Shown: positions 6,024 to 40,420 of the stretch, in pieces | Position numbering within the stretch: the stretch's first letter is position 1 | Layout of the letters: each line of letters begins with the position of its first letter | Made by a program: the position numbers and the translations under genes | Notes under the pieces: model-generated | The model's database searches: none | What the model saw: the letters and a program-made list of their open reading frames with translations, nothing else | What the model was told of the DNA's origin: nothing | Source of the DNA: Verrucomicrobiota bacterium | GTDB lineage: Bacteria; Verrucomicrobiota; Verrucomicrobiia; Limisphaerales; JACQFS01 | DNA length: 44,952 bases | Direction: 5' to 3' | Assembly (NCBI GenBank): GCA_016199935.1 | Contig: JACQFS010000005.1 | Location: 1 to 44,952 of the forward strand

Positions 6024-6040
6024 ATTGAAAGGAAAACATC

Positions 6041-6247: not shown

Positions 6248-6271
6248 ACCGCCGCGCCAGAGCCGGACGTT

Positions 6272-7257: not shown

Positions 7258-8189
7258 TACTTGTCCGGCACGCGGAAGGTCGCCTTGATGGGGCGGTGGT
7301 CGGAGGCTTCGCCCCACCTCGGCAGTGCGAGCACGTAAGTTTCCTTCTCGTCCCAGCTCTCGGCCATCGCCTTGCTCAACAGGATGTAGTCAATGCGCGA
7401 GTAGGTGTCCTCCTTCCCGTAGAAATAGGTCCACGCGATGTTCATCGGCGAGTAGCCCTTCTTCGTCGCGGTGCGCGGGTCGCCGTTGCGCTCGGCGGGG
7501 CGCGTGTCCACGAGTTGTTTGCTCCCGTAATGGCCAATGACGGTGCGGATCGCCTTGCTCTCCTTCGTGTCGTTGAAATCACCGACGACGGCGAAGCGCG
7601 CGTTGCGGTTCTCGGTGAGGAGGCGGTCAATTTTTTCGCGCAACAGAATCGCCTCCTGCTCGCGCAACTCCGCCTGGTCCGCCTCGGGCACGGGCCGCTT
7701 GGACTTGAGGTGCGCGAAGAGGAGCGTGAAGGAAAACTTTGCGCTCACTTGGAGGTCCACCTCGCCGAAGCCGCGGCTGACGAAGCAGCGCCGGCCACTG
7801 AGCAGAAAGCTCTCGTTCGTGTGCGGGCGGCGCGCGGTGATGGGAAACTTGCTGAGCACGGCGACGTGGATGTTGGTGTCCCAGCCGGAGACGTGCTCCC
7901 AGTGCGGGTAGTCCACGCCGTCGGCCTTGAGCGAGGCGCGAAGTTCGAGGAAGGCGTTGGTGCCGCCCATCTCCTCGAACGCAATCACGTCCACGCCGAG
8001 GAGCTTGATGGATTCGCGCACTTTCGCCTTCGCCGCGACGGACTTCATCGGCCGCGTGCCGGCCGGGGCGTCGAGGTAGTTCTCCACATTGTAGGCGCCA
8101 ACGGAAAAGGTGTCCGCAGCGATCAGGCGGAGCGAAAGGGCAAAACTGAAAACGCCGACGGCGAAGCCACGGGCCCGGTGGGAGTGCAT
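7257..8189 (-). CDS. Secreted endonuclease/exonuclease/phosphatase family protein.
   Basis: Signal peptide, followed by EEP-family motifs (VIAFEE, GDFND, SDHRP). Confidence 0.8.
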   Translation of the reverse strand: MHSHRARGFAVGVFSFALSLRLIAADTFSVGAYNVENYLDAPAGTRPMKSVAAKAKVRESIKLLGVDVIAFEEMGGTNAFLELRASLKADGVDYPHWEHVSGWDTNIHVAVLSKFPITARRPHTNESFLLSGRRCFVSRGFGEVDLQVSAKFSFTLLFAHLKSKRPVPEADQAELREQEAILLREKIDRLLTENRNARFAVVGDFNDTKESKAIRTVIGHYGSKQLVDTRPAERNGDPRTATKKGYSPMNIAWTYFYGKEDTYSRIDYILLSKAMAESWDEKETYVLALPRWGEASDHRPIKATFRVPDK

Positions 8190-8306
8190 GGCCTTGTTTA
8201 TTTGCCACGCGGGCGTGTGTCAAAGATTCTGCGTCGGGGCGTCGAAAATGTTTTTTGCAATCGCCCGCGCGGCTGCTAGTTTCCGGCCACCTTGAACGCT
8301 GCTGAC

Positions 8307-9119
8307 ATGGCCTCCCTCCCCGCAACTGCCGCCGCGCCCGCGAAGCATCCGCTGCACGACAAGCAGAGCGAGCGCGACCACCGCGGCCTGCGCATTGACA
8401 AGGTGGGCGTGCGCGGCGTGCAGTTCCCGATTCAGATCCGCGACAAGGCGCACTCGCTCCAGAACACGGTTGCCACAGTCGCGATGTCGGTGGACCTGCC
8501 GCACGAGTTCAAGGGCACGCACATGAGCCGCTTCATCGAGGTGCTCAACGCGCACGGCAACGTCGTTCACGTGAACAACATTCCCGACATCCTCGCGGCG
8601 ATGCGCGCGCGGCTCAACGCGGAGACGGCGCATTTGGAAATGGAGTTTCCGTTTTTCCTGACCAAGCGCGCGCCCGTGTCCGGGCTGGAGAGTGTGATGA
8701 ATTACACCGCGCGCTTCGATGCGACGATGCGCGGGAAGGAAATTGATTTCGTGATGACCGTCATCGCGGCGGTGACCACGCTTTGCCCGTGCTCCAAGTC
8801 CATCAGCAAATACGGCGCGCACAATCAGCGCGGCAACGTCACGGTGCAAATCCGCTCGACCGAAGCGATCTGGATCGAGGACGCCATCACGCTCATCGAG
8901 CAGTCCGCCAGCAGTGAACTTTACTCGCTGCTCAAGCGCCAGGACGAGAAAGCCGTGACCGAGCGCGCCTACGAGAATCCGGTTTTTGTCGAGGACCTCG
9001 TGCGCAATGTCGCCGTGCGCCTCAACGCGCATCCCGACGTGACGTGGTATAAAGTGGAGGCCGAAAACTTCGAGAGCATCCACAACCACAACGCCTACGC
9101 GTGCATCGAAAAGGGCTGA
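8307..9119 (+). CDS. folE2: GTP cyclohydrolase FolE2 (GTP cyclohydrolase I type 2 / MptA family).
   Basis: Strong family resemblance (THMSRF, CPCSK). ATG 8307 was chosen; the ORF-track start at 8292 is a TTG. Confidence 0.85.
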   Translation: MASLPATAAAPAKHPLHDKQSERDHRGLRIDKVGVRGVQFPIQIRDKAHSLQNTVATVAMSVDLPHEFKGTHMSRFIEVLNAHGNVVHVNNIPDILAAMRARLNAETAHLEMEFPFFLTKRAPVSGLESVMNYTARFDATMRGKEIDFVMTVIAAVTTLCPCSKSISKYGAHNQRGNVTVQIRSTEAIWIEDAITLIEQSASSELYSLLKRQDEKAVTERAYENPVFVEDLVRNVAVRLNAHPDVTWYKVEAENFESIHNHNAYACIEKG

Positions 9120-9306
9120 GGACGGGCGCGGCGGTGGGTTTCATCCGACTCGCGGGGCCCGGTTTTTACGCACGCAAGATTCCCCAAAATTTTTGTGGCG
9201 CGTCGAGTCGCCTTTGATACAGTCGCGCACCCTTGAAACCGGGCAGGCGTTTTCCGCAGGTGTGAAACACGTTTTGCCGTGGTGGGGAAACAAAATTTTA
9301 CCGACC

Positions 9307-9921
9307 GTGAGCGCAAAGAAAACGAAAGCAAAAAAATCGCCGGCCGCCAAATCGCCGGCCGCCAAACCGAAGAACGTGGGCGCCGCCTCCGCCGCCGCCA
9401 TTCTCGGCATCAAGCCATCCAAGGCGAGTGCCAACGGCAAGAAGACCAACGACGTGCCCAAGCACATCAAGGGCGACGCCGCGAAGTATTACCGCAACCT
9501 GATGGACCTGCGCGACCGGCTCATGCACCAGATGCACGGGCTGGCCAAGGAATCCGCCACGGAGATGGAAAGCTACAGCCTCCACATGGGCGACTCCGGC
9601 ACGGACAACTTCGACCGCGATTTCGCTCTGAGCCTGCTTTCGGCGGACCAGGATGCGGTGTATGAAATTGAAGAGGCGCTCAAGCGGCTCGACAAGGGCA
9701 CCTACGGCACGTGCGAATTGACCGGCAAGCAGATCCCGCGCGCGCGCCTCGAGGCGATCCCCTGGACCCGGTTCACCGTCGAGGCGCAGGCGCAGCTTGA
9801 ACGCGATGGTGCCGTCCGGCAGAAAAAGCTCGGCACGCTCGGCACGCTCGACACGCCCGCCGTCGCCGAGGCGGACGACGACGACGAGCCCGAGGAGAAG
9901 CCCGCCAAGGAGAAGGAATAA
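9307..9921 (+). CDS. DksA/TraR-family C4-type zinc-finger protein with a Lys/Ala-rich N-terminal tail; start uncertain.
   Basis: DksA C-terminal signature CELTGKQIPRARLEAIPWTRF. GTG 9307 was chosen because upstream 9193-9306 looks non-coding. Confidence 0.6.
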   Translation: MSAKKTKAKKSPAAKSPAAKPKNVGAASAAAILGIKPSKASANGKKTNDVPKHIKGDAAKYYRNLMDLRDRLMHQMHGLAKESATEMESYSLHMGDSGTDNFDRDFALSLLSADQDAVYEIEEALKRLDKGTYGTCELTGKQIPRARLEAIPWTRFTVEAQAQLERDGAVRQKKLGTLGTLDTPAVAEADDDDEPEEKPAKEKE

Positions 9922-9924
9922 TTT

Positions 9925-10092
9925 ATGCCACGCGAAATCGTCACCATCGAATGCACCGAGGCGCGCAAGGAAGGCAAGCCGCCCTCCCGCTACCAGACCT
10001 CCCGCAACAAAAAGCTTCAGACCGAGAAGGTCGAGAAGAAGAAATACAACCGATTCCTCCGCCGGCACACGCTGCACCGCGAAATCAAATAA
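9925..10092 (+). CDS. rpmG: 50S ribosomal protein L33.
   Basis: 55-aa ORF ([12 protein letters not shown]...SRNKK...[15 protein letters not shown]) matching the L33 pattern. Absent from the ORF track because it is shorter than 60 aa. Confidence 0.85.
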
Positions 10093-10096
10093 TCCC

Positions 10097-10348
10097 ATGC
10101 CCCGCAAAACCAATCTCGAAAAAGACAAGAAGCGCGACGGCAAGCGCGAAGCCCGCCCGCAACGCCCGAAGCCGAAGATCGACTTCACGGTGGACGCGCT
10201 CGACTACAAGAACACGAACCTGCTCAAGCAGTTCGTCACCGATCAGGGACGCATCCTGCCGCGCAAATACACCAACCTGCCCGCGCACTATCAGCGCCGG
10301 CTCACCACCGCCATCAAGCGCGCGCGCCAGATGCTGCTGATGAAGTAA
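10097..10348 (+). CDS. rpsR: 30S ribosomal protein S18.
   Basis: S18 signature ...DYKNTNLLKQFVTDQGRILPRKYTNLPAHYQRRLTTAIKRARQMLLM. The larger ORF 9797..10348 is an in-frame artefact. Confidence 0.9.
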   Translation: MPRKTNLEKDKKRDGKREARPQRPKPKIDFTVDALDYKNTNLLKQFVTDQGRILPRKYTNLPAHYQRRLTTAIKRARQMLLMK

Positions 10349-10362
10349 CCGTTTTTCGCACC

Positions 10363-10393
10363 GGCCCGTTCCCCGTGGGGACGGGCCTTTTTT
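10363..10393 (+). terminator. Rho-independent terminator after rpsR.
   Basis: GGCCCGTTCCCC/GGGGACGGGCC hairpin followed by TTTTTT. Confidence 0.75.
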
Positions 10394-10455
10394 GTCGCGG
10401 CGGGCACCCGTCAGGGTGATCCGCCGGATGGCTCGAAAAACCGACTGGCCCGGCG

Positions 10456-11169
10456 ATGGACTATCTCCTTCTGCTTTCAACCATCCTGGCAGGCGCGCTG
10501 ACCGTGCTCTTCCTGCGCCTGGAGCGGCACGGCTACATCAAGCTCTTCAACGCGTTCACCGGCGCGTATCTGCTCTGCGTCACGTTCCTGCATTTGTTGC
10601 CGGAACTTTACTCGCACGACGCCGCGCTCGGCCATCACGGGCTGATCGGCGCGCTCATCCTCGGCGGTTTTTTCCTCCAGATCATTCTCGACAGCATCTC
10701 GATGGGCGTCGAGCACGGTCACACTCATCATCTTCATGGTGGTGTGCCGTGGGGCGTCATCATCGGCCTCTGCCTCCACGCGTTCGTCGAGGCGACGGCG
10801 CTCGGGAGTGCCGGCCAGCACCACGACCCCGCCTCGCGCCGGATGCTGCTGACCAGCATCGTCGTTCACAATTATCCCGTCTCGATCGCGCTGCTGGTGA
10901 TGCTGCTCCACGCCGGCCTGCCTCGCGGCCGCGCGCTCGGCTTCCTCGCGTTGTTCGCGGCGATGGGGCCGCTCGGAATGTTCCTCAGCGCGCACACCGA
11001 CCTCGCCTCACACACCCGCGAACTCACCGCCGTCGTCATCGGCATCTTCATGCACATCTCCACGACGATTCTCTTCGAGAGCAGTGACACCCACCGTTTC
11101 AACCTCGCCAAGATTGCCGCCATTCTGATCGGCATGGGCGTGGGCGTGCTGACAGTGATGCTGCATTAA
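10456..11169 (+). CDS. ZIP-family zinc/metal transporter (ZupT-like).
   Basis: Multi-transmembrane protein with HGHTHH and HxxxE motifs. Confidence 0.85.
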   Translation: MDYLLLLSTILAGALTVLFLRLERHGYIKLFNAFTGAYLLCVTFLHLLPELYSHDAALGHHGLIGALILGGFFLQIILDSISMGVEHGHTHHLHGGVPWGVIIGLCLHAFVEATALGSAGQHHDPASRRMLLTSIVVHNYPVSIALLVMLLHAGLPRGRALGFLALFAAMGPLGMFLSAHTDLASHTRELTAVVIGIFMHISTTILFESSDTHRFNLAKIAAILIGMGVGVLTVMLH

Positions 11170-11464: not shown

Positions 11465-11671
11465 ACCAGCGTTTTCCTTTCGGTTGCGGGGGAAGCGGAA
11501 AGAGTGCCAGCGAAGGTGACACGTCAAAACCGATGCTGCAAAGCTGCTTCAGCGGGGCCATGACGGAAAAAACCAATAGCTGAAGACGTCGGGATGATCA
11601 AGTTTCGATTTTGCCCGTGAAGAATTCCCGCCAGGCTGGTCCGGAAACGCCACGGCAGCGCTCGCAGTGCT

Positions 11672-12562
11672 TCAAATCCTTGAACCAAGGACCGCGGAAG
11701 CTCGATGGGAGAATGATCCCGACCGCCACTCCTTCTCGCGCCGCGTCCGCAGCAGGCGTAATTCGGCGCGCTCGTAATGCCGCCGCACTCCATCGAATTC
11801 TTCCGCCAAAATTCCCGCCAGCACCAGCACTCCGCCCGGCGCGACCCGCGCGATGATCCGCCGCGATTCCTTCACCAACAGGTCCGCGATGAGGTTGGCG
11901 CACACGACCTGAAACCGCCGCGAAGAAGTCACCGGGAGCCGGGTCACGTCGCGGCGGGCCAGCGTCAGCTTCCGGGCGACGTGATTCACCCGCGCGTTTT
12001 CCGCCGCCACGCGCACCGCATCGGGATCGAAATCAAACGCCTCGACGGGCGCGTAGCCGAGCTTCGCCGCCGCGATGGCGAGAATTCCGGAGCCGGTGCC
12101 GATGTCCAGAAACGACTGCCACTCCGCCGCGCGACGGCAGCGCACCAACTCGCGCAGGCAGAACGAAGTCGTCGCGTGCTGCCCCGTGCCGAAGCTCAGG
12201 CCAGGATCAAGCGTCACCACCTGCTGACCGCCCTTCGGCTTGCGCTTGCTCCAACTCGGCTTGATGAGCAATGCCGGACCGACCTCCATCGGCGGAAAAT
12301 GTTTTTTCCACGACTCCGCCCAATCCTCCTTCCGCACGCGGCTCGACGTGATTCTCCCCCGCCCCATCTCGACGCCCCAAGTGCGAATCTCCGCGAGGCA
12401 CGCACGCAGTTCGGCCAACTGTCCGCGCGTCGCCCGCGCGCCTTCGGTGAGATAGACCTGCGCGCGCGATTTCTTCCGCACCGTGTCGAAATAAACCGAT
12501 GCAGGCTGATCGAACACGCGCGTCAGCGCCACGCGCACGCACTGGAGCCAGCCACGCTTCAT
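11672..12562 (-). CDS. prmA: Ribosomal protein L11 methyltransferase.
   Basis: PrmA-like N-terminal domain plus SAM-MTase motifs (LDIGTGSGILAIAAAKLG, DFDPDAV). Start at ATG 12562, which overlaps the upstream gene's stop as ATGA. Confidence 0.85.
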   Translation of the reverse strand: MKRGWLQCVRVALTRVFDQPASVYFDTVRKKSRAQVYLTEGARATRGQLAELRACLAEIRTWGVEMGRGRITSSRVRKEDWAESWKKHFPPMEVGPALLIKPSWSKRKPKGGQQVVTLDPGLSFGTGQHATTSFCLRELVRCRRAAEWQSFLDIGTGSGILAIAAAKLGYAPVEAFDFDPDAVRVAAENARVNHVARKLTLARRDVTRLPVTSSRRFQVVCANLIADLLVKESRRIIARVAPGGVLVLAGILAEEFDGVRRHYERAELRLLRTRREKEWRSGSFSHRASAVLGSRI

Positions 12563-14917: not shown

Positions 14918-16288
14918 ATGGCTTTCCTGAAAAATGTCGTTGCCCTCTGCCTCGCGCTCGCGCCACTCACCGCGACCGCGGCGGGCGTGAGCTTCACCAA
15001 GGAGATCGCGCCCATTCTCCAGGCCAAGTGCGCGGCGTGCCACAACGCGGAGAAGGCCAAGGGGCACTATCAACTCCACACTTTCGAGTTGATGCTCAAG
15101 CCCGGCTCCAGCGGCTCCCCTGCCCTCACGCCGGGCAAGCCGGAGGCGAGCGAACTCTTTCGCCTGTTGAACGAAAAAAATCCCGACGACCGGATGCCGC
15201 AGAAGGACGATGCACTCTCCGCCAAGCAGATCGTGCTCATCGAAAAATGGATCCGCGAGGGCGCAAAGTTCGACGGGCCTGATGCCAGGGCGAACCTGGC
15301 CACGCTCATCCCGCAGTCGCGCGCGCCGGAAGCGCCGAAGGTTTATCCGGCGCCCGTGCCCATCAGCGCGCTCGCCTTTTCGCCGGACGGGAAACAGATC
15401 ATCGCCGGCGGCTACTACGAGCTGACTGTCTGGAATGTTGGCGAAAAGAAATTGCTCAACCGCATCAAGGGCGCGCCGCAACGAACTCTCGCCATCGCGT
15501 TCAGCCCCGATGGTAAGCTGCTCGCCGTCGCCGGTGGCACGCCGGGCGCGAGTGGCGAGGTGAAACTCTTCAACGCCACGAGCGGCAAATCCGTGAAGAC
15601 GCTCTCCCGCCTGCGCGACGCGGCGCTTTGCCTCGTATTCAGTCCCGATGGCAAGACGCTCGCCGCCGGCGCGGCGGACAACACCATCCGCCTTTACGAC
15701 ATGGTCGCGCAGAAGCAGCGCAAACTCATCGAGCAGCACGCGGACTGGGTGCTCGCGCTCGCTTTCAACGCCGATGGCTCGCGCCTCGCCTCCGCCAGCC
15801 GCGACAAGTCCGCGCGCACGTTCGACGCGAAGTCCGGCGCGCTGCTCGACAACTACGTAGCGCACGAGGAACCGGTCATCGGCGTCACGTTCACGGCCGA
15901 GGGCAAAATCATTTCGGCGGGCCGCGATCGGCGCGTTCACGCGTGGGAACCGGGCAAGCTGAGCGAGAAGGACAAGAAGTCGAAACCCGCCGAGTTCGGC
16001 GTGGGCGAGGGCGAACTCACGCGGCTCCTCGTTACCAGCAACCGCCTCTACGCCGCAACCAGCGACCGCGCCGTGCGCGAATACGATCCGACGAAGCGCG
16101 AGATTGTCCGCAGCTTCAAGGACCTCGGTGATGAAATTTCCGCGCTCGCGTTCGACACCAAGGGCCAGCGCATCGCCGCCGGGACGCAGAGCGGGCGGGT
16201 GTTCATCTGGAAGGCGGAGGATGGGCAGAAGATCACGAGCTTCACCGCCGCGCCGGGATACAAGGCGCCGGTGGCGTCGGCGAAATAG
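14918..16288 (+). CDS. Planctomycete cytochrome C (PSCyt1) domain protein with a WD40 beta-propeller.
   Basis: Signal peptide, a CAACH haem-binding-like motif, and multiple WD-like repeats (FSPDGK...). Confidence 0.8.
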   Translation: MAFLKNVVALCLALAPLTATAAGVSFTKEIAPILQAKCAACHNAEKAKGHYQLHTFELMLKPGSSGSPALTPGKPEASELFRLLNEKNPDDRMPQKDDALSAKQIVLIEKWIREGAKFDGPDARANLATLIPQSRAPEAPKVYPAPVPISALAFSPDGKQIIAGGYYELTVWNVGEKKLLNRIKGAPQRTLAIAFSPDGKLLAVAGGTPGASGEVKLFNATSGKSVKTLSRLRDAALCLVFSPDGKTLAAGAADNTIRLYDMVAQKQRKLIEQHADWVLALAFNADGSRLASASRDKSARTFDAKSGALLDNYVAHEEPVIGVTFTAEGKIISAGRDRRVHAWEPGKLSEKDKKSKPAEFGVGEGELTRLLVTSNRLYAATSDRAVREYDPTKREIVRSFKDLGDEISALAFDTKGQRIAAGTQSGRVFIWKAEDGQKITSFTAAPGYKAPVASAK

Positions 16289-20379: not shown

Positions 20380-21864
20380 ATGCAAATCTCATGTCCCAAT
20401 TTCATCGGCGGCGAATGGCGCACGCTTCGCGGCGCCTCCACGCCGGTCTTCAACCCCTCCACTGGCGAAGTCATCGCCGAATGTCCCGTCGGCACCGCCG
20501 CGCTCGTGGACGAAGCGGTGCAGGCCGCGCAAGCTGCGTTCCCCGCGTGGCGCGACACGCCGCCGGTCGAGCGCGCGCGGGTGTTCTTCCGCTACCGCCA
20601 ATTGCTCGAAGCGAACTTCGACCGCATCTGCCAGAGTGTTTCGCGCGAGCATGGCAAGACGCTCGTCGAGGCGCGCGGCAGCATTTTCCGCGGACTGGAA
20701 AACGTGGAATACGCCTGCGGCATCCCGTCGCTGCTCATGGGCGACACGCTGGAGAACATCGCGCGCGGCGTGGATTGCGAGACGGTGATGCAACCGCTCG
20801 GCGTTTGCGCCGGTATCACGCCGTTCAACTTTCCCGCGATGGTGCCGATGTGGATGTTCCCCGTCGCGCTCGCGTGCGGGAATACCTTCATCCTCAAGCC
20901 GAGCGAAAAAGTTCCGCTCTCCGCCGTGCTCATCATCGAACTGCTCGAACAGGCGGGACTGCCGAAGGGCGTGCTGAACATCGTCCACGGCGGGCGCGAG
21001 GTGGTGGACGCGCTGCTCACGCATCCCAAGGTGAAGGCCATCTCCTTCGTCGGCTCGACGCCGATTGCGCGCTACATCTACGAGACTGGCACGAAGAACG
21101 GGAAGCGCGTGCAATCGAACGGTGGCGCGAAGAACTACATCGTCGTGATGCCGGATGCTGACGTGCCGAAGACTGTCGAGGCGCTTTCGACCGCCGCGTT
21201 TGGTTGCGCGGGCGAGCGTTGCATGGCCGGCTCCACCGCGCTCACCGTCGGTGCCGCCGCCGACCGTCTGCTGCCGACGCTCGTGGACGCCGCGCGCGCC
21301 ATCAAGGTCGGCCGCACCGACCGCCCCACGCCGCAGCCCGACATGGGGCCGGTCATTACCGCGCAACATCGCGACCGCGTGATGAGCCTCGTCGCCGCGG
21401 GCGAAAAGGAGGGCGCGAAGGTCATTTGCGATGGCCGCAGCGCGAAAGTCCCCGATGCGCCCAACGGCTTTTTCCTCGGCGCGACCATCATGGACCAGGT
21501 GCAGCACGGCACGACGCTCGCGCGCGAGGAAGTCTTCGGTCCCGTGCTCAACGTGATGCGCATAGACGACCTTGACCACGCCATCGAGCAGGCGAACAAG
21601 TCGGCGTTCGGCAACGGCGCGGCCATCTTCACCAATTCCGGCAAGGCCGCGCGCGAGTTCAAGCATCGCGTGAAGGCCGGCATGGTTGGCATCAACGTCG
21701 GGGTGCCCGCGACGATGGCGATGTTCCCCTTCACCGGCTGGGACGAATCCTTCTTCGGCGACCTGCACATTCAGGGCCGCGAGGGTGTTCAGTTTTACAC
21801 GCAGCAAAAGGTCATCAGCACGCGGTGGTTTGGTGAAGGCGTGGGAGATGTCTGGAAAAAATGA
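20380..21864 (+). CDS. mmsA: CoA-acylating methylmalonate/malonate-semialdehyde dehydrogenase.
   Basis: Aldehyde dehydrogenase family with the MmsA-like pattern and a catalytic Cys region (FGCAGERC). Confidence 0.85.
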   Translation: MQISCPNFIGGEWRTLRGASTPVFNPSTGEVIAECPVGTAALVDEAVQAAQAAFPAWRDTPPVERARVFFRYRQLLEANFDRICQSVSREHGKTLVEARGSIFRGLENVEYACGIPSLLMGDTLENIARGVDCETVMQPLGVCAGITPFNFPAMVPMWMFPVALACGNTFILKPSEKVPLSAVLIIELLEQAGLPKGVLNIVHGGREVVDALLTHPKVKAISFVGSTPIARYIYETGTKNGKRVQSNGGAKNYIVVMPDADVPKTVEALSTAAFGCAGERCMAGSTALTVGAAADRLLPTLVDAARAIKVGRTDRPTPQPDMGPVITAQHRDRVMSLVAAGEKEGAKVICDGRSAKVPDAPNGFFLGATIMDQVQHGTTLAREEVFGPVLNVMRIDDLDHAIEQANKSAFGNGAAIFTNSGKAAREFKHRVKAGMVGINVGVPATMAMFPFTGWDESFFGDLHIQGREGVQFYTQQKVISTRWFGEGVGDVWKK

Positions 21865-22402
21865 CGAATGCCGAATGACGAATGGAATGACAGAGACGCT
21901 GGCGGAATGTTCGGCGGAAGAGTTGGAGTTCTGGGGATTCGCTCCGACTGAAGAACCTCTCGTATTGCGCGACGAGGGGCCGCCGTTGGTCTATGACTTG
22001 GAGGTGCGGACGACGCGATTCGGTGAGCAAATCATTCTGTTTGCAAAGAAGATTCCGTGGGGACCGGTCAACAATCGGCTTATCGACCAACTTGTCGGCG
22101 CAGGCACGAGCGTCGGGGCGAATTACTGCGAGGCCGATGACGGTGTTTCCAAGGCTGACTTCAAACATCGAATCAGCATTTGCCGCAAGGAATCGCGCGA
22201 AACGAAATTCTTCCTCCGCATGGTGGTGACTTCGGAGCCGAATTTGAAACCTGACGCGCGCGAACTGTGGAAGGAAGCGCACGCCTTGCACCGCATTTTT
22301 AGCCGCATCTGGCGCAGCACCAAGACGTGACCGAGATGAATCACTCGACCAAAATGTCGAATGTCGAATGGCATCCGGCCCGCCATTCGTCATTCGTCAT
22401 TT
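21861..22402 (+). mobile_element. IVS-like cassette 1: heptamer array / four-helix-bundle gene / inverted array and hairpin.
   Basis: Left AATGCCGAATGACGAATGG (21867-21885) is the reverse complement (18/19) of right CCATTCGTCATTCGTCATT (22384-22402). (ATGACGA)n tandem units occupy 21861-21895. A local 20-bp hairpin lies at 22353-22402. GC is lower than the surroundings. Confidence 0.5.
21875..22330 (+). CDS. Four-helix-bundle protein (TIGR02436 / 23S rRNA intervening-sequence protein family), divergent.
   Basis: Family pattern DLEV..., LIDQLVGAGTSVGANYCEA, SKADFKHRISICRKESRETKFFL; homologous to the second copy at 36325. An alternative start is ATG 21887. Confidence 0.65.
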   Translation: MTNGMTETLAECSAEELEFWGFAPTEEPLVLRDEGPPLVYDLEVRTTRFGEQIILFAKKIPWGPVNNRLIDQLVGAGTSVGANYCEADDGVSKADFKHRISICRKESRETKFFLRMVVTSEPNLKPDARELWKEAHALHRIFSRIWRSTKT

Positions 22403-30724: not shown

Positions 30725-32128
30725 TTACGAAATCACGCCCATCACCGGATTCCCCTCCGCGAGGAGGATGGGTCGGTTCTGCGTGTTCACCACTTCCGTG
30801 TGCGGGTCAATGCCGAGCAGGTGATACATCGTCGCCGCCAGATCGTCGGGGCGCACGGGGTCCTTCGCGGGATACATCGCGTGCTTGTCCGACTCGCCGT
30901 GGACATGGCCGCGCTTCACGCCGCCGCCCGCGAGCAACGTCGTGTAGCATTGCGGCCAGTGATCGCGGCTGATGTTCGCGTTGATCTTCGGCGTGCGGCC
31001 GAACTCGCCCATCCACACCACCAGCGTGTCCTTCAGCAGCCCGCGCTCGTCCATGTCGTTGAGCAGCGTCGGCAGCGTCTGCTCCGTGATGGGCAGGTGA
31101 TACTTCTCGATGATCGGGAACATGCGCGTGTTGTCGAAGCCGTGCGTGTCCCAGCCGCCGCTCGTCGAACTGCGCCCGCCGATGTTGTTGGAGAAATACA
31201 CGCTCACGAACTTCACCCCCGACTCGATCAACCGCCGCGCCAACAGACAGCTCTGCCCATAAGTCGAGCGCCCGTAGGCCTCGCGCACCTTCGCCGGCTC
31301 TTCCGAAAGGTTGAACGCCTTGCGCAGCTTCTCCGAGTGCAGCATTGCCAGCGCCTTGTCGTAGTAACTGTCCATCCCGCGCGCCTCCGACGAGAAGTCC
31401 AGCAGCCGCGACTGCTGATCAATCAGCTTCTGCAACTCCCGCCGCGCGCTGATGCGCTCATAGCTCAGGTTCCCCGGCAGGCTCAGCTCCGGCAGCGCGA
31501 AGTCCGCCGCGTTCGGGTCCTGCGTGAAGAGAAACGGATCGTGCGCCTTGCCGAGAAAGCTCGCGTGCTGACCCGGCGTGATCGAGCCGTCCGACACCAC
31601 GTGCGGGAACGCCACGAAGCCCGGCAGCTCCGCCGGCCCCGGCGCGAAGCGGTCCACCACCGAGCCGTAGGCGGGGAACAGATCCACCGAATCGCGCAGC
31701 CGCTGGTCATCCGTCAACGGCGCGTGCCCGCTCAGCGCGTAATAGCCCGCCGAGTTGTGATTCTTCATCGTGTGCGTCATCGAGCGGATGAGCGTCACCT
31801 TGTCCATGATCTTCGCCGTGAGCGGGAGCTTCTCCGACACCTGGATGCCGTCCGCGCTGCTGCTGATCGGCGCGTGCAGGCTGCGGATGCCCTCGGGCGC
31901 ATCCGGCTTCAGGTCGAACATGTCAATGTGCGACGGCCCGCCCCACTGGAAGAGGAACAGCACCGACTTGGCCTTCGCCTTGATGCCCTTCGCCTTGCTG
32001 GCGGCCTCGGCGGCGAGGAGCTTGGGCAACGTGAGGCCGAGCAGGCCCAGCCCGCCCACCTTGAGCGCGCACCGCCGCGAGAACTTCGCGTGATTGAAGC
32101 CGGCGCAGGCAAAGGACTTGGTGCTCAT
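30725..32128 (-). CDS. DUF1501-domain protein with a Tat-like signal (sulfatase-like fold).
   Basis: RRxALKxG twin-arginine motif plus the DUF1501 pattern (WGGPSHIDMFDLKPDAP...). Confidence 0.85.
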   Translation of the reverse strand: MSTKSFACAGFNHAKFSRRCALKVGGLGLLGLTLPKLLAAEAASKAKGIKAKAKSVLFLFQWGGPSHIDMFDLKPDAPEGIRSLHAPISSSADGIQVSEKLPLTAKIMDKVTLIRSMTHTMKNHNSAGYYALSGHAPLTDDQRLRDSVDLFPAYGSVVDRFAPGPAELPGFVAFPHVVSDGSITPGQHASFLGKAHDPFLFTQDPNAADFALPELSLPGNLSYERISARRELQKLIDQQSRLLDFSSEARGMDSYYDKALAMLHSEKLRKAFNLSEEPAKVREAYGRSTYGQSCLLARRLIESGVKFVSVYFSNNIGGRSSTSGGWDTHGFDNTRMFPIIEKYHLPITEQTLPTLLNDMDERGLLKDTLVVWMGEFGRTPKINANISRDHWPQCYTTLLAGGGVKRGHVHGESDKHAMYPAKDPVRPDDLAATMYHLLGIDPHTEVVNTQNRPILLAEGNPVMGVIS

Positions 32129-32878: not shown

Positions 32879-33167
32879 TCTTCGGGCGTCCCGCCGCTTT
32901 ACCCACGATTAAAAGATGCGCCCCAAGCCAGGCGCCCGCCTCGCGCAAGACGACCGAAGCGACCCCTCTCCCCTTGCTTCGCAAAGGGAGACGGAGTCCG
33001 CATTCGCCATCGCTTCGTGCTGCCGGAGCAGCGATGCGCCCGGGAGACCCGACGGCGGGCCGATGATTTTACATGGCGCGGGCGACATTCTTGCATGGCG
33101 GTTCCGCGCGACGACGACTAGCTTGGCCCTCGAACAATGCCACGCCGTGAACGTCAGTCTCTTTGTC

Positions 33168-36100
33168 ATGCTTGAACGTGTCCGCATCCTCATCGGTGGA
33201 GTCGTCGGAACCGCGCTGTTGCTCGCCGCCGGCCCGGCGCGCGCGGCCGTGCCGAGTGACCGCGTGGATTTCAACCGGCACATTCGCCCGATCCTTTCGG
33301 ACAACTGCTTCGCCTGCCACGGCCCCGACGTGAAGCAGCGCAAGGCCGACCTGCGGCTCGACACGAAGGACGGCATCTTCGCGGACCTCGGCGGTTACGC
33401 GGCGGTGCGGCCGAAGGATTTCAAGAAGAGCGAGCTGTGGCGCCGCATCACCACGAAGGACAAGGACGATGTGATGCCGCCGCCGGACAGCCACAAGACG
33501 CTCAAGCCGGAGCAGGTCGCGGTCATCAAAAGGTGGATCGAACAGGGCGCGCCGTATCAGGAGCACTGGGCCTTCATCGCGCCCAAGAAGCCGGTGGTGC
33601 CGGCCACTCGAAACTCGAAACTCGAAACTCGAAACGCAATTGACGCCTTCATCGGCGCAAAGCTCACGGAGAAAAAACTCACGGGCTCGCGCGAGGCGTC
33701 GAAGGAAGTGCTGATCCGTCGCGTGACTTTCGATCTCACCGGCCTGCCGCCCACGCCTGCGGAGGTGGATGAATTTCTCCGCGACACCAAGACGGACGCC
33801 TACGAGCGGCTCGTGGAGCGGCTGATGAAGCGGCCGAGCTACGGCGAGCACATGGCGCGCTACTGGCTCGACGTGGCGCGTTACGGCGACACGCACGGGC
33901 TGCACCTCGACAACGAGCGCTCGATGTGGCCCTACCGCGACTGGGTCGTGGGCGCGTTCAATCGCAACCTGCCTTACGATCAGTTCACGGTCGAACAACT
34001 CGCGGGCGACCTGTTGCCGAAAGCGACGCGCGACCAGCAGATCGCCTCGGGCTTCAACCGTTGCAACGTCACGACCAGCGAGGGCGGCAGCATCGCGGAG
34101 GAGTTCGTGGTGCGCTACGCCGTGGACCGCACGCAGACGGCGATCGAGGTGTGGATGGGGCTCACGGCGGGTTGTGCGGTGTGTCACGATCACAAGTTCG
34201 ACCCGCTCACGCAGAAGGAATTTTATTCGCTCTACGCGTTCTTCAACTCCGCCGCCGATCCCGCGATGGACGGCAATGCGCTGCTGACCGCGCCCATTTT
34301 GGAACTCACCACGCCGGCGGAGCAGACGAAGCTGGACGACTTCGACAAAAAACTCACCAACGTGCGCCGGCGCATGACGAACGCGCTAGCGAAAGTGAAA
34401 TACGTGGAGCCTGCGACCAACGCGCCGTCGAAGCTCGCCGAGACCGTGTGGGTGGACGACGCGTTCCCGTCCGGCGCGAAGGTGCAGCACAAGGGCAAGG
34501 ACACGACGTGGATCAAGAAGGCCGACGGGCCGGTGTTCAGCGGCGGCCGCGCGCTCAAGCGCACGGCGGACAAGGTGGAGCAGGATTTTTATCAGGACGG
34601 CGCGACGGCGTTCGAGGTGCGGTCGAACGGCGTGCTGTTCGCCTACGTTTATCTCGACCCGACGAATCCGCCGAGCGCCGTGATGCTCCAGTTTCACACG
34701 ACCAACTGGATGAACCGCGCCGTGTGGGGCGACGAGGATGCGATTGCGTTTGGAAAAAAGGGAACGACCAAACGGCTGCGCGTCGGCGACCTGCCTGAGT
34801 CCGGCAAATGGGTCCGACTCGAAGTGGACGCGAAGAAGCTCGGCCTGCGCAAGAGCGCCAAGATCTCCGGCCTCGCCTTCACGCAATTCGGCGGGACGGT
34901 GTATTGGGACAAGGCGGGGCAGGCTTACGAGACGCTGCCGGCCACCGACCCGCTCGAATCGCAGCTCGCGTGGGAGAAGCTGCACCAGGGCAAGCCGGAC
35001 AAGGAATTATCGAAGGAGGTCGCGGATATTTTCCGCTCGGTGCCGCCGAAGGAGCGCAAGCCGGAGCACACACGCGCGCTGCGGCAGTTTTATCTGGAAA
35101 ACGTTTTCAACGGCACGCGCACGGCGATGGACCCGTTGCTCGCGGAGTTGAAACCGATCAAGGAACAGCGCGACGAATTCGACAAAACGATCACCGCCAC
35201 CTTTGTGATGAAGGACATGGAGAAACCGCGCGAGGCGTTCGTGCTCTTCCGCGGCCAATACACCCAGCCGCGCGACAAGGTCACGCGGAACGTCCCCGCC
35301 GTCTTCCCACCGCTCCCGCGCAAGAACGACTACACGCGGCTCGACCTGGCGCAGTGGCTCGTCAGCCCCGAGCATCCGCTCACCGCGCGCGTGGCGGCGA
35401 ATCGTTTCTGGCAGCAGTTCTTCGGCACCGGCCTCGTGAAGACCGCGGCGGACTTCGGCTCCCAGGGCGAACCGCCGTCGCATCCCGAGCTGCTCGACTG
35501 GCTCGCCGTGACGTTCCGCGAATCCGGTTGGGACGTGAAGCAACTCGTGAAGCTCATCGTGACCTCCGCAACTTATCGTCAGGACTCGAAGGCCACGCCG
35601 AAACTGCTCGACGTGGACCCGAACAACCGCCTGCTCGCGCGCGGGCCGCGCTTCCGCTTGGACGCGGAGGAGATTCGCGACAACGCGCTCTTCGTCAGCG
35701 GCCTGCTCGACCCGACGATGGGCGGCAAGGGCGTGCGGCCGTATCAGCCGGAAAATATTTGGGAGCCCGTCGCCTATAGCGGGAGCAACACGAAGGTTTA
35801 CAAGCAGGACTCCGGCAGCGCGCTCTACCGCCGCAGCCTCTACACGTTTCTCAAACGCACCGCGCCGCCGCCGGCCATGACGACCCTCGACGGCCCGAGC
35901 CGCGAACAAAGCTGCACGCGCCGCGAGCGCAGCAACACGCCGCTCCAGGCGCTGATGCTGATGAATGACGTGCAGCACTTCGAGGCCGCGCGCGCTTTCG
36001 CTCAGCGCATGATGACCGAAGGCGGCGGCTCACCGGACGACCGCCTCGCGTGGGCATTCCGCATCGCGACCGCACGCCAGCCGGCGAAGAACGAGGTCGG

Positions 36101-36284
36101 CATTTTGAAACAGGCGCTCGACCGCCAACTCGCGCGCTACCGCCAGAACCCGGACGCCGCGAAGCAGGCGATCGCCTTCGGCGAATCGAAACCCAAGGCC
36201 GGCCTGAATGAGTCCGAGCTCGCGGCCTACACGCTGGTCGCGAATCTCATTTTGAACTTGGATGAGACGCTGACGAAGAACTGA
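33168..36284 (+). CDS. PSCyt2 (DUF1549) + PSD1 (DUF1553) domain protein.
   Basis: Signal peptide, CFACHGPD motif, and HWAF...NAIDAFI DUF1549 signature. Start trimmed from 32916 to ATG 33168 (MLERVRILIGG...). Confidence 0.85.
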   Translation: MLERVRILIGGVVGTALLLAAGPARAAVPSDRVDFNRHIRPILSDNCFACHGPDVKQRKADLRLDTKDGIFADLGGYAAVRPKDFKKSELWRRITTKDKDDVMPPPDSHKTLKPEQVAVIKRWIEQGAPYQEHWAFIAPKKPVVPATRNSKLETRNAIDAFIGAKLTEKKLTGSREASKEVLIRRVTFDLTGLPPTPAEVDEFLRDTKTDAYERLVERLMKRPSYGEHMARYWLDVARYGDTHGLHLDNERSMWPYRDWVVGAFNRNLPYDQFTVEQLAGDLLPKATRDQQIASGFNRCNVTTSEGGSIAEEFVVRYAVDRTQTAIEVWMGLTAGCAVCHDHKFDPLTQKEFYSLYAFFNSAADPAMDGNALLTAPILELTTPAEQTKLDDFDKKLTNVRRRMTNALAKVKYVEPATNAPSKLAETVWVDDAFPSGAKVQHKGKDTTWIKKADGPVFSGGRALKRTADKVEQDFYQDGATAFEVRSNGVLFAYVYLDPTNPPSAVMLQFHTTNWMNRAVWGDEDAIAFGKKGTTKRLRVGDLPESGKWVRLEVDAKKLGLRKSAKISGLAFTQFGGTVYWDKAGQAYETLPATDPLESQLAWEKLHQGKPDKELSKEVADIFRSVPPKERKPEHTRALRQFYLENVFNGTRTAMDPLLAELKPIKEQRDEFDKTITATFVMKDMEKPREAFVLFRGQYTQPRDKVTRNVPAVFPPLPRKNDYTRLDLAQWLVSPEHPLTARVAANRFWQQFFGTGLVKTAADFGSQGEPPSHPELLDWLAVTFRESGWDVKQLVKLIVTSATYRQDSKATPKLLDVDPNNRLLARGPRFRLDAEEIRDNALFVSGLLDPTMGGKGVRPYQPENIWEPVAYSGSNTKVYKQDSGSALYRRSLYTFLKRTAPPPAMTTLDGPSREQSCTRRERSNTPLQALMLMNDVQHFEAARAFAQRMMTEGGGSPDDRLAWAFRIATARQPAKNEVGILKQALDRQLARYRQNPDAAKQAIAFGESKPKAGLNESELAAYTLVANLILNLDETLTKN
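33606..33635 (+). repeat. Perfect tandem heptamer (ACTCGAA x4, plus AC) inside the PSD1 CDS.
   Basis: Read directly as ACTCGAAACTCGAAACTCGAAACTCGAAAC; it encodes TRNSKLETRN. Confidence 0.8.
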
Positions 36285-36288
36285 AAAA

Positions 36289-36840
36289 GTATTCAGTGTT
36301 CAGTTTTCAGTATTCAGAACCGCTATGAAAACACAGCCGAACATCGAATCGCCGCCGCTGCGGCCACCGCTGCCTTTTGCAAGGAGCTTCAAGGAACTGG
36401 CGGTTTATCAGAAGGCGCGGGTGCTGACGCGGGAGGTGTTCAAGATTACCAAGCGATTCCCGCGCGAAGAGGCGTATTCGCTGACCGACCAGTGGCGGCG
36501 CGCGGCGCGTAGCATCGGCGCGCAAATTTCGGAAGCGTGGGCGAAACGACGATACCCAAAAAGCTTTGTCAGCAAACTGGCCGATGCAGACGGCGAGCAG
36601 ATGGAAACGCAGCACTGGACCATCGTCGCTTACGACGATGGCTACATCTCGCGCGAGGAAGCGCAGCGCATCGGTTCGCTCGCATTGGAAGTCGGCCGGA
36701 TGCTCGGCGACATGATCCAAAATCCCGAGTCCTTCTGCGGTGACGAATTCAACTCAGCCCTCCGCGAAACTCCCTCCCACTATTTCGTGGATACGGTGGA
36801 GCACGACCCACTGAACACTGAATACTGAACACTGAATACT
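36289..36840 (+). mobile_element. IVS-like cassette 2: heptamer array / four-helix-bundle gene / inverted heptamer array.
   Basis: Left array TATTCAG TGTTCAG TTTTCAG TATTCAG (36290-36317). Right array CTGAACA CTGAATA CTGAACA CTGAATA (36811-36838). The arrays are reverse complements (26/28 pairing). The cassette is inserted between the PSD1 stop at 36284 and the DUF1501 start at 36847. Confidence 0.55.
36325..36828 (+). CDS. Four-helix-bundle protein (TIGR02436 / 23S rRNA IVS-protein family).
   Basis: ELAVYQKARVL...KRFPREEAYSLTDQWRRAARSIGAQISEAWAKRRY...FVSKLADADGEQMETQHW. The stop codon lies within the right heptamer array. Confidence 0.8.
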   Translation: MKTQPNIESPPLRPPLPFARSFKELAVYQKARVLTREVFKITKRFPREEAYSLTDQWRRAARSIGAQISEAWAKRRYPKSFVSKLADADGEQMETQHWTIVAYDDGYISREEAQRIGSLALEVGRMLGDMIQNPESFCGDEFNSALRETPSHYFVDTVEHDPLNTEY

Positions 36841-36846
36841 TTCTCC

Positions 36847-38325
36847 ATGAACCCCCTCGCCGCCCGCCTCGCCCACCTCACGCGCCGCCAGTTCTTCAAG
36901 ACGAGCGGCATCGCCGGCGGCAGCATCGCTCTGGCGTCGTTGCTCGGTGAGGCGGCGCGCGCGTCCGTGCCGAAGTCCGGGGCGGTCCACCCTGCCCTGC
37001 CCGGCTTCCCGCATTTTGCGCCGAGGGCGAAGCGGTTGATTTATCTCCACATGAACGGCGCGCCGTCGCAGCTCGACATGTGGGATTACAAACCGAAACT
37101 CCAGGCGGAGTTCGACAAGGATCTGCCCGACAGCATCCGCAAGGGCCAGCGCATCACCACGATGACGAGCGGGCAGGCGCGGCTGCCGGTCGCGCCCTCG
37201 CTCTTCGAGTTCAAGCAGCACGGCAAATGCGGCACGTGGGCGAGCGAACTTCTCCCGTGGACTTCGAAGCTCGTGGATGACCTCGCCGTCATCCGCACCG
37301 TCCACACCGAGGCGATCAATCACGACCCCGCGTGCACGTTCGTGATGACCGGCAGCGAGGTGCCGGGCAAGGCGAGCCTCGGCTCGTGGATTTCCTACGG
37401 CCTCGGCAGCGAGAACAATGACCTGCCGGCGTTCGTCGTGCTCACGCCCGTGTGGTCGTCGGGCGCGGCGGCGCAGGCGCTCTTCACGCGCATGTGGAGC
37501 AGCGGCTTTCTGCCGACGACTCACGCCGGCGTTGCGCTGCGCGCGAAGGGCGATCCGGTGTTGTTTGTGAAAAATCCACCCGGCGTGGATCGCAGCGCGC
37601 GCCGCGACATGCTCGATTCGCTCGGCGAACTGAACCAGTTGAACTACGCGCGCTTCGCCGATCCCGAAACGCAAACGCGCATCGCGCAATACGAGATGGC
37701 GTTCCGCATGCAGATGTCCGTGCCAGACTTGGTGGATGTCTCGAAGGAGTCGAAAGCCACGCTCGATCTCTACGGCCCCGAGGTGACGACGCCGGGGACG
37801 TTCGCGCACAGTTGCCTGCTCGCGCGCCGGCTCTCCGAAAGAAATGTGCGCGTCGTGCAGTTGCTCCATCGCGGCTGGGATCAGCACGCCAATCTGCCGA
37901 AGGACATCCGCGCGCAGTGCCACGACACCGATCAGGCGTGCTTCGGCCTGCTCACCGACCTCAAGGCGCGCGGCCTGCTCGACGACACGCTCGTGGTGTG
38001 GGGCGGCGAGTTCGGGCGCACGGTTTATTCGCAAGGCAAGCTCACGCAGGACAATTACGGCCGCGACCATCACCCGCGCTGCTTCACGATGTGGATGGCC
38101 GGCGGCGGCGTGAAAGGCGGCATGGTCTATGGCGAGACGGACGACTACAGCTACAACATCGTCGAGAACCCCGTCCACGTGAACGAGCTGAACGCGACGA
38201 TTCTCCACTGCCTCGGCATCAACCACGAGAAATTCACCTTCAAGTTCCAGGGCAATCCGCCTCCGGCACCGACACGTTCGCCTCACGGCTCAGGTCGCCA
38301 TCGTCCGGCAGCGAGGGATCGGTGA
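36847..38325 (+). CDS. DUF1501-domain protein (Tat signal).
   Basis: RRQFFKTSG Tat-like motif plus the DUF1501 pattern. It is the partner gene downstream of PSD1. Confidence 0.85.
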
Positions 38326-40256: not shown

Positions 40257-40376
40257 CGCCGGGACTTTAGCAGCAGTGGTGCCACGAAGGAAACAGGCGA
40301 TATTTCGCCGGAGCACGTCGCAAGCACGGGTGATTCTCACGCGAAAGGGTTGAATCTCGCGCAGCGACAGCGCGAC

Positions 40377-40411
40377 TTTGAATCTTGAACTTTGAACTTC
40401 GAACCTCGAAC
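40377..40411 (+). repeat. Degenerate heptamer tandem array (TTTGAAT CTTGAAC TTTGAAC TTCGAAC CTCGAAC) ending 10 nt before a start codon.
   Basis: Five consecutive YTYGAAY units, read directly. The unit resembles the in-CDS ACTCGAA/TCGAAAC repeat at 33606. Confidence 0.7.
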
Positions 40412-40420
40412 GTCGCCGCC

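Follow-up and report, generated by a model that had tools for sequence, protein, structure and literature searches.

A four-helix-bundle gene between inverted heptamer arrays in an operon spacer of a Verrucomicrobiota bacterium, and the family of exchangeable cassettes to which it belongs

A cassette in the PSD1-DUF1501 spacer

The stretch of DNA analysed here, positions 1 to 44,952 of contig JACQFS010000005.1 from a metagenome-assembled genome (MAG) of a Verrucomicrobiota bacterium (hereafter the window), carries an operon in which a gene with PSCyt1, PSCyt2 and PSD1 domains is followed on the same strand by a DUF1501 gene. The spacer between the two is occupied by a small gene encoding a four-helix-bundle (4HB) protein, and this gene is framed by two arrays of tandem heptamers that are inverted with respect to each other. 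The gene and its two arms are referred to below as a cassette. The window contains a second cassette of the same organisation; the one in the PSD1-DUF1501 spacer is designated B-type and the other A-type, according to protein subfamily. The coordinates of the cassettes, of their parts, of the host genes and of related arrays are collected in Table 1, where ORF stands for open reading frame and TRF for Tandem Repeats Finder.

The anatomy of the B-type cassette can be read directly from its sequence. A preliminary description of the element had reported four TRTTCAG units on the left facing four CTGAAYA units on the right, with complementarity at 26 of 28 positions, and direct reading confirmed both the units and the pairing. 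An inverted-repeat search extended the arms to 35 nt (36283-36317 and 36811-36845), 91% complementary and 493 nt apart, the outermost portion of which, GAAAAAG on the left and CTTTCTC on the right, is non-heptameric. At its outer end the left arm overlaps the PSD1 stop codon; at its inner end the sequence AACCGCT separates the heptamer array from the ATG of the 4HB gene at 36325, placing the start codon 7 nt past the arm. On the other side, the right heptamer array is followed by CTTTCTCC and then by the DUF1501 ATG at 36847, 1 nt past the right arm. The right array also supplies the last codons of the 4HB gene, whose reading frame ends CCA CTG AAC ACT GAA TAC TGA. Its stop codon (TGA, 36826-36828) thus lies within the array, as had been described, and the same holds for 44 of 62 family elements. 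Homologous proteins often end in PLNTE[YHN], the translated right array.

TRF detects a period of 7 in both flanks of the cassette, with 4.3 copies in the left array, and the two-unit pattern TRTTCAGTRTTCAG, allowing at most one mismatch, occurs six times in the window, always within the arms, where 100 shuffles give an expectation of 0.00. The heptamer arms are far richer in AT than the 62% GC genome. Prediction of the RNA structure of the flanks, a check that the preliminary description had proposed, places the terminal stem in both the minimum-free-energy and the centroid folds, with a z-score of -4.9 for the 591-nt RNA. A promoter and terminator scan found no promoter-like site with the cassette.

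TGA triplets at 36812, 36819, 36826 and 36833 put a stop into each forward frame of the right arm, and the left array likewise closes all three reverse frames, its unit containing TGA and 7 not being a multiple of 3. Units of the ACTGA and TRA kinds give TGA or TAA in all frames. A three-frame stop barrier was considered as the purpose of the units and rejected, because only 35 of 62 right arrays close all frames and other unit families contain no stop.

Table 1. Coordinates of the two cassettes, their parts, the host genes and related repeat arrays in the window.
Feature	Position	Strand	Evidence or remark
PSCyt1/PSCyt2/PSD1 gene, upstream host	32916-36284	+	Pfam PSD1 1.9e-104, PSCyt2 6.6e-84, PSCyt1 2.6e-18
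PSD1 stop codon TGA	36282-36284	+	preceded by AAGAAC; overlaps first bases of left arm
B-type left arm	36283-36317	+	GAAAAAG plus four heptamers
B-type left heptamer array, TATTCAG TGTTCAG TTTTCAG TATTCAG	36290-36317	+	direct reading
4HB gene (B-type), 167 aa	36325-36828	+	PF05635 6.6e-30, TIGR02436 1.4e-27
B-type right arm	36811-36845	+	four heptamers plus CTTTCTC
B-type right heptamer array, CTGAACA CTGAATA CTGAACA CTGAATA	36811-36838	+	direct reading
DUF1501 gene, downstream host	36847-38325	+	Pfam DUF1501 1e-144
A-type cassette	21859-22402	+	ORF TIGR02436 2.7e-15; inverted repeat
A-type left arm, AATGACG-type units (core CGAA)	21859-21885	+	sequence
A-type 4HB ORF	21887-22330	+	TIGR02436 2.7e-15
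A-type right arm	22381-22402	+	inverted repeat
Gene-less hairpin, inverted 8-mer arrays of AGGTTATC type and GATAACCT type	461-573	.	TRF; loop ~40 nt; between convergent ORFs
Solo array ACTCGAA, perfect, 4.3 units (core CGAA)	33606-33635	+	TRF, 100% matches; in frame in PSD1 coding sequence
Solo array NNNYGAA (ACTTTGA/CTTCGAA/CCTCGAA; A-type core)	40375-40415	+	TRF; 5 nt before ATG (40421) of xylose-isomerase-like TIM-barrel gene

The four-helix-bundle protein

The protein of the B-type cassette passes both curated cut-offs of its family, with 103.9 bits for PF05635 (cut-off 33.8) and 96.1 bits for TIGR02436 (cut-off 24). Its AlphaFold model (pLDDT 84) has disordered tails and helices at residues 26-42, 51-73, 78-104 and 110-132, and its best matches in the PDB are 2gsc, 2rld and 4dwl, with Foldseek TM(target) values of 0.90 for 2gsc and 0.87 for 2rld. 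The first of these structures is Xanthomonas XCC0516, the second is assigned to the 'S23 ribosomal protein family', and the third is Avd, to which the structural match is more distant. 2GSC and Avd are known pentamers, and the B protein is probably pentameric too. Among the window gene and its closest homologues at four loci (L001-L004; loci used for comparison are numbered with the prefix L), dS ranged from 1.2 to more than 2, so that synonymous sites are saturated, and dN/dS was 0.05-0.2, which indicates that the protein evolves under purifying selection; for the window gene itself, dN/dS against homologues was 0.06-0.2. The GC content at third codon positions (GC3) is 0.72 in the B-type gene against 0.86 in its neighbours, and the two 4HB genes of the window together show values of 0.69-0.72 against 0.84-0.87 in neighbouring genes.

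The resemblance to Avd suggests one alternative origin, in which the cassette derives from, or serves, a diversity-generating retroelement (DGR) and its protein is an Avd. The fold (4dwl) and a distant sequence similarity are indeed shared, the latter seen as weak matches to Pfam bAvd (3.7e-09), NCBIfam DivGenRetAVD (1.7e-10) and the PHROG 'Avd protein of DGR' (1.1e-11). The B protein nevertheless falls below the Avd-specific cut-offs, scoring 37.5 bits for PF22296 (cut-off 40) and 41.1 bits for NF033474 (cut-off 80). Scanning of ORFs across the 45-kb window turned up no transposase, integrase or reverse transcriptase, no pair of template and variable repeats lies near the cassette, the neighbours are PSD1 and DUF1501, and the arrangement recurs at more than 140 loci in metabolic operons. 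A DGR origin is therefore very improbable. Avd forms a basic pentamer, and all five of its protomers take part in binding an RNA stem-loop beside its own gene (bioRxiv 10.1101/2023.10.23.563531); for the cassette protein, the corresponding RNA or DNA partner would be a stem of tandem repeats.

A sister cassette in the same window

The preliminary description had likened the cassette to a sister element near position 21861, and the presence there of inverted arms around a TIGR02436 ORF substantiates the comparison. An inverted-repeat search gave arms of 22 nt, 91% complementary (21859-21880 and 22381-22402), and the terminal stem again appears in both the minimum-free-energy and the centroid folds. 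The A protein scores 36.5 bits for PF05635 (cut-off 33.8) and 56.5 bits for TIGR02436 (cut-off 24). The identity of about 25% once given for the two window proteins could not be reproduced, as BLASTP yields no significant alignment (E 0.42) and the two are linked solely via the family profile. The A-type cassette sits in a pyrimidine-catabolism operon, where an aldehyde dehydrogenase gene and a dihydropyrimidinase-like amidohydrolase gene flank it, and orthologous A-type cassettes occupy the same site in five relatives (L085, L086, L087, L093 and L102). An inner array (22352-22372, 2.6 units of AATGTCG) makes a local hairpin with the A-type right arm across a 9-nt loop; the right arm thus has two alternative pairing partners, the left arm or the inner array.

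A family of regular design

Two samples of related elements were collected. The B-type sample comprised 80 genomic loci with homologues 50-82% identical, and its statistics refer to 75 elements with both flanks, namely 73 loci and the two window cassettes; the A-type sample comprised 80 metagenomic loci, of which 66 with both flanks were scored. The B-type loci span the Verrucomicrobiota, Chloroflexota, Lentisphaerota, Planctomycetota, Acidobacteriota and Desulfobacterota. The 75 elements have a median inverted-repeat score of 18, where shuffled flanks and 304 control genes taken from these loci both give 8, and 88% score above the 99th percentile of the shuffles. The best tandem period is 7 in 60 of 75 left flanks and 62 of 75 right flanks, compared with 1 of 150 shuffled flanks. 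The 66 A-type loci behave in the same way, with a median inverted-repeat score of 22.5 versus 8, a period of 7 and units of the form NNNCGAA. Arms contain a median of 4.6-4.9 units (range 2-26), and unit number differs between close relatives (L011, L017, L020). Cyanobacterial plasmid copies of the 4HB gene carry inverted arrays of 7- or 8-mers in four of six cases checked, the units being GCAGAGGA 8-mers in Nostoc sp. C052, GCAGGGGA 8-mers in N. punctiforme PCC 73102 and TTAGCTG 7-mers in Calothrix PCC 7716.

Period-7 arrays are also concentrated around the 4HB genes. In 789 kb of locus sequence there are 217 such arrays, while periods 5, 6 and 8-11 give 4-33. A total of 135 (62%) are found no more than 300 nt from a 4HB gene, in zones that account for 11% of the sequence; the other 82 lie more than 300 nt away, many of them as hairpins.

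The inverted-repeat and period-7 statistics of 75 B-type and 66 A-type elements support the earlier proposal of an element family, and the cassette is a member of a widespread, exchangeable family of regular design. Slippage does make short tandem repeats, and the variation of unit number among close relatives is what it would produce, so that simple repeats might have come to lie beside a small ORF by coincidence. With an expectation of 0.00 for the repeat pattern, and more than 140 independent loci that share a fixed polarity and subfamily-specific cores, these statistics refute such a coincidence and leave it next to no probability.

Each protein subfamily has its own repeat core

The consensus unit of the B-type arms is RATCAGT, and its final five positions are nearly invariant across phyla. 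When cores were counted in 7-nt phase, the left flanks of B-type elements contained CAGT 276 times and CGAA twice, and the left flanks of A-type elements contained CGAA 130 times and CAGT not once; the right flanks of both types carry the complements of the left-flank cores. The cores of the two arms co-vary, TAGT being matched by TAGT and CGGT by CGGT, and unit identity between arms is 5.85/7 within an element as opposed to 5.11/7 between elements (p = 8e-8). TATTCAG and TGTTCAG units are still present in the non-coding arms of the window and of L001-L004 despite the saturation of synonymous sites. As A and B cores coexist in the window, the core is a property of the cassette and not of the host.

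The preliminary description had raised the possibility that the heptamers are the recognition or target feature. The part of this claim that stands is the existence, across phyla, of a 4-nt core proper to each subfamily (CAGT versus CGAA); recognition itself is plausible. The subfamily-specific cores suggest, as their best explanation, that the protein recognises its own repeats, because RNase III needs no conserved 4-nt core and Avd binds an adjacent RNA stem-loop.

Variant units have also been encountered. The CGGT core is common to the cassette and to distant arrays in the same locus in L045 and L074. TTCACGT units occur in both a Chloroflexota and a Verrucomicrobiia MAG (L025 4357-4379 and L075 1516-1546), and TCATCCC units in both a Lentisphaerae and an Anaerolineae MAG (L037 and L040). 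This recurrence of non-CAGT unit families across phyla hints that there may be further cassette subfamilies with cores of their own.

Occupancy of the operon spacer

Cassettes share the direction of their neighbours. Among B-type elements, 49 are co-directional with both neighbouring genes and 2 are reversed, and among A-type elements the numbers are 21 and 1, so that about 96% are co-oriented. The order PSD1, 4HB, DUF1501 recurs in 14 B-type loci, in which the identity of the 4HB proteins tracks that of the neighbours; in this group the median distance is 6 nt from the PSD1 stop to the left arm and 10 nt from the right arm to the DUF1501 start.

Comparison of orthologous sites supports the view that the element was inserted into a usually tight spacer. 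The two closest DUF1501 homologues in the protein search (L081 and L082, 79% and 78% identity) have no cassette, and their spacers measure 6 and 7 nt (AAGAACTGA-ACCGCC-ATG and AAGAATTGA-CGCGATT-ATG, respectively). The orthologous spacer contains a B-type cassette in the window and in L001-L003, a B-type gene reversed between the same arms in L004, and an A-type cassette in L083 (DUF1501 77%) and L109. In the isolate Horticoccus sp. 23ND18S-11 (L084, CM134186.1) it is 109 nt long (4892-5000) and holds a short inverted repeat, ACAGAATGAA / TTCATTCTGT, whose unit resembles the Coxiella GACAGAT heptamer and which may be the remnant of a cassette. The spacer of a paralogous PSD1-DUF1501 pair in L019 is about 20 nt. 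No target-site duplication was seen when filled and empty PSD1-DUF1501 sites were compared. A similarity between the 4HB start region GAACCGCTATGAA and the L081 empty spacer plus DUF1501 start GAACCGCCATGAA was considered as a trace of insertion and discarded as probably coincidental; it is not seen in L001 or L003. In a neighbour-joining tree of DUF1501 the window stands beside the empty L081, and B-filled sites are found on many deeper branches. The distribution suggests ancient occupancy of the site followed by loss and replacement, with the tree, a quick distance tree, being compatible with repeated insertion as well. The A-type site provides a further case: in L091 the A-type cassette (2960-3460) is found one gene further along the operon, after the amidohydrolase gene, and the original Aldedh-Amidohydro spacer contains only a gene-less CACGGAT/ATCCGTG inverted-array hairpin (1468-1560).

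These occupancy states can also be read at the level of DNA. REPtrons, as reportedly described by Nunvar in 2010 and by Bertels and Rainey in 2011, consist of RAYT genes flanked by REP sequences, with REPIN doublets dispersed in the genome. The cassette could be a mobile or recombining element of comparable type, its arrays serving as sites of insertion, excision, inversion or copying and its 4HB protein as a factor specific for the arrays, which might need no partner or might work together with a nuclease or polymerase of the host, and which would also spread or maintain gene-less hairpins and solo arrays. The likeness lies in a gene enclosed by oppositely oriented copies of a repeat that also occurs dispersed on its own, and in repeat classes matched to protein subfamilies; the cassettes differ in having a 4HB protein instead of an HUH/Y1 transposase and tandem heptamer arrays instead of single palindromes. 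An orthologous spacer that is empty, B-filled, A-filled or inverted, the clean 6-7 nt spacer after loss, the one-gene shift in L091, the presence of one protein subfamily with its own repeats across phyla and the atypical GC3 all fit this explanation. It has to contend with a 4HB fold that has no known catalytic activity, with the lack of transposase, integrase and reverse transcriptase among the scanned ORFs, and with filled and empty sites that differ by no target-site duplication. DNA transposition alone would not lead one to expect 96% co-orientation with the operon, and both the tracking of flanking genes by 4HB identity and the DUF1501 tree indicate long vertical residence. We regard a DNA-level element as possible but doubtful.

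Solo arrays and gene-less hairpins

Repeats of the same kinds are found in the window apart from either cassette. The gene-less hairpin at 461-573 is a miniature of the cassette design, with units that resemble the B-type core plus one base and a predicted RNA fold of -67.5 kcal/mol (z = -9.8). The perfect ACTCGAA array at 33606-33635 lies in the linker between PSCyt1 and PSCyt2, where four orthologues have a conserved 'KN.KW-P.N' stretch; the array takes the place of this stretch and adds one codon net. For the array at 40375-40415 no inverted partner was seen nearby. Arrays common upstream of unrelated genes without an inverted partner had been named in advance as evidence that would speak against a family. 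This is borne out in part by solo arrays and gene-less hairpins, represented by the two solo arrays and the hairpin of the window and by the 82 distant arrays of the comparison loci; they broaden the picture and do not refute the family.

Two comparison loci are notable for their arrays. In L006, 5 kb from its B-type cassette, a hairpin of inverted CAGTGCY and GCACTGA arrays (11654-11779) has a loop consisting of eight perfect units of TCATTCG, the A-type unit. In L037, a Lentisphaerae MAG, long heptamer arrays and hairpins extend over 10 kb (1282-11121), far denser than in other loci and belonging to at least two unit families (NNNCAGT and TCATCCC/TCAGCTT).

Gene-less hairpins invite comparison with the Correia and ERIC elements, hairpin insertions which, according to De Gregorio et al., are said to be co-transcribed with operons, to be processed by RNase III or RNase E and to alter the expression of flanking genes. 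Being hairpin insertions in operon spacers, they are the best functional analogue of the gene-less hairpins, but they have no ORF, no tandem-repeat arms and no subfamily-specific heptamer core, and they carry target-site duplications. By extension, the heptamer hairpins could be host regulatory structures acting on mRNA stability, processing or translational coupling, and the 4HB gene a mere passenger in the loop. This would account for gene-less hairpins in equivalent spacers (window 461-573, L091 1470-1550, L015, L054, L073 and L076) and for the heptameric simple sequence repeats, often in convergent pairs, that are over-represented between genes of Xanthomonas and Nostoc (PMC4692102). A passenger would not explain why 62% of the period-7 arrays cluster in the 11% of sequence around 4HB genes, why the core changes with the protein subfamily but not with the host, with A and B coexisting here and each kept across phyla, or why the protein is under strong purifying selection, and we consider this explanation unlikely. 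The DNA-level alternative, by comparison, gains from the core types that gene-less hairpins and solo arrays share with cassettes, including the perfect array in the PSD1 coding sequence, and from the CGGT core found both in the cassette and in distant arrays of L045 and L074.

Relation to known systems

The link to the intervening sequences (IVSs) of 23S rRNA genes, which the preliminary description had suggested, proved apt. In Coxiella burnetii the IVS contains an S23p ORF, its ends pair into a 28-bp stem that RNase III cuts, and two or three tandem GACAGAT heptamers, their number differing between strains, precede the start codon, the 5' cut falling at the first of them (PMC4990558). The IVSs of Coxiella burnetii and Leptospira share with the cassette a PF05635 ORF, a length of about 430-560 nt and a terminal stem of about 28-35 bp, and the Coxiella IVS shares in addition the variable number of tandem heptamers between the base of the stem and the start codon (PMC4990558). 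They differ in location, the window element lying between two coding genes of an operon and not inside 23S rRNA, where IVSs occupy helix 9, 25 or 45; an Rfam scan of the window returned one tRNA only and no rRNA. In the window cassette, moreover, both arms are whole heptamer arrays and the stop codon lies within the right one. Excision by RNase III has been demonstrated for the rRNA elements only.

A second connection is with the heptamers of Xanthomonas and cyanobacteria. The over-represented intergenic repeats of Xanthomonas and Nostoc (GGGAATC, GGGGAYT) have been described as unexplained (PMC4692102), and, like the short tandemly repeated repetitive (STRR) sequences of cyanobacteria, they resemble the cassette arms in being intergenic tandem heptamers that often form inverted pairs; 4HB genes on Nostoc and Calothrix plasmids are flanked by inverted arrays of 7- or 8-mers. 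In Xanthomonas campestris ATCC 33913 an array of four GGGAATC units (622956-622983) is separated from bccP (XCC0517) by 6 nt and overlaps with the XCC0516 start codon (PMC4692102, supplementary file 2). The overlap is listed there without comment, and XCC0516 is the 4HB protein of structure 2GSC. The Xanthomonas and Nostoc studies differ in their unit sequences, make no tie to 4HB genes and discuss G-quadruplexes.

Other mobile elements offer less. Transposons and miniature inverted-repeat transposable elements are set apart by the window cassette's lack of a target-site duplication and by the scanned window ORFs, which include no transposase. An integron gene cassette, with its single 3' attC site and its integrase, is not matched either, as tandem heptamers lie on both sides and the scanned window ORFs include no integrase. 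No description of non-rRNA 4HB genes flanked by heptamer arrays was found in a literature search that left most subscription journals outside its reach.

A model for the cassette

We propose that the element is an exchangeable cassette of the IVS type residing in a protein-coding operon, with arms that pair in the transcript, and assign this reading a probability of roughly one half. According to the model, the cassette, lacking a promoter of its own, would be transcribed as part of the host operon, and base-pairing of its arms would give a stem of about 35 bp, which would loop out the cassette of about 500 nt and bring the PSD1 stop and the DUF1501 start again to within a few nucleotides of each other. 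Because looping would restore this proximity and so preserve coupling, insertion would be tolerable in a spacer that normally measures 6-7 nt. The DUF1501 initiation region would be covered by the outer base pairs, exactly those that a ribosome would melt on terminating at PSD1, and the start region and stop codon of the 4HB gene would be sequestered in the stem. By analogy with rRNA IVSs the stem would be a substrate of RNase III, and the 4HB protein, a probable pentamer, would most likely bind its own repeat arrays or the stem. The cassette would be inherited mostly vertically under purifying selection, and could be lost, inverted, swapped for another subfamily, moved to a neighbouring spacer or transferred between phyla.

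Several observations weigh against the transcript-pairing model. Mismatches between arms comprise 55 G.U, 85 A.C and 180 other pairs, with no bias towards G.U in the sense strand, a comparison weakened by the ability of tandem arms to pair in several registers. The arms therefore bear no RNA-specific signature, and their complementarity might just as well be maintained at the level of DNA. Formation of a stem leaves the conservation of the core unexplained, RNase III having no need of one. Solo arrays, one of them in coding sequence, cannot work as stems, about 20% of homologous loci have no clear array on one side, and some loci have arrays of at least 20 units, more than a stem or a pentamer would require. 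For cassettes outside rRNA, the model is also built from sequence and analogy. The lack of a G.U excess, the solo arrays and the gene-less hairpins together keep the REPtron-like element at DNA level alive.

A further possibility takes the cores as its starting point. The 4HB proteins may be sequence-specific readers of short-period arrays, each subfamily and its arrays forming a genome-wide, REPtron-like system. Within the pentamer, each protomer would then read one 4-nt core per 7 nt; the gene would sit in one array pair, and gene-less hairpins and solo runs would be placed and maintained in operon spacers and sometimes in coding sequence, where they would control the processing or translation of RNA. 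TRAP, which reads repeats, and Avd, which reads flipped-out bases, offer comparisons for reading by one protomer per core. Taken as a whole, this proposal is a tentative one, and we would not bet on it.

Other features of the window

A second DUF1501 gene (30725-32128, minus strand) is divergent from the PSD1 gene and has no adjoining PSD1 partner, and neither a gene combining PSCyt1 with a WD40 beta-propeller (14918-16288) nor a small HNH endonuclease gene (5571-6023) adjoins a cassette. The true start of the PSD1 gene probably lies downstream of 32916, at the signal-peptide-like sequence MLERVRIL. A PADLOC scan found nothing relevant.

Implications

'Four helix bundle protein' (TIGR02436/PF05635) is among the commonest uncharacterised annotations in the Verrucomicrobiota, Planctomycetota, Chloroflexota, Cyanobacteria and Bacteroidota, and the contexts known before were rRNA intervening sequences and DGRs only. 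To these can now be added a gene that as a rule travels together with inverted heptamer arrays as one cassette, that has its own 4-nt core in each subfamily, that is co-oriented in tight operon spacers, and whose orthologous site may be empty, filled, flipped or swapped. The cassette ties together the 30-year-old ORF of the IVSs, Avd, the excess of heptamers seen as cyanobacterial STRRs and as GGGAATC pairs in Xanthomonas, and the hairpins of operon spacers. The same architecture is present in the culturable Nostoc punctiforme PCC 73102 (pNPUN02) and at XCC0516 of Xanthomonas campestris, for which a crystal structure has been solved, which makes these ideas testable. If 4HB proteins are readers of arrays, this would account both for what the IVS ORF does and for the heptameric repeats (STRR, GGGAATC) that bacterial genomes contain in excess, and a protein that reads such repeats would be a novel module for recognising RNA or DNA through a simple code of repeats.

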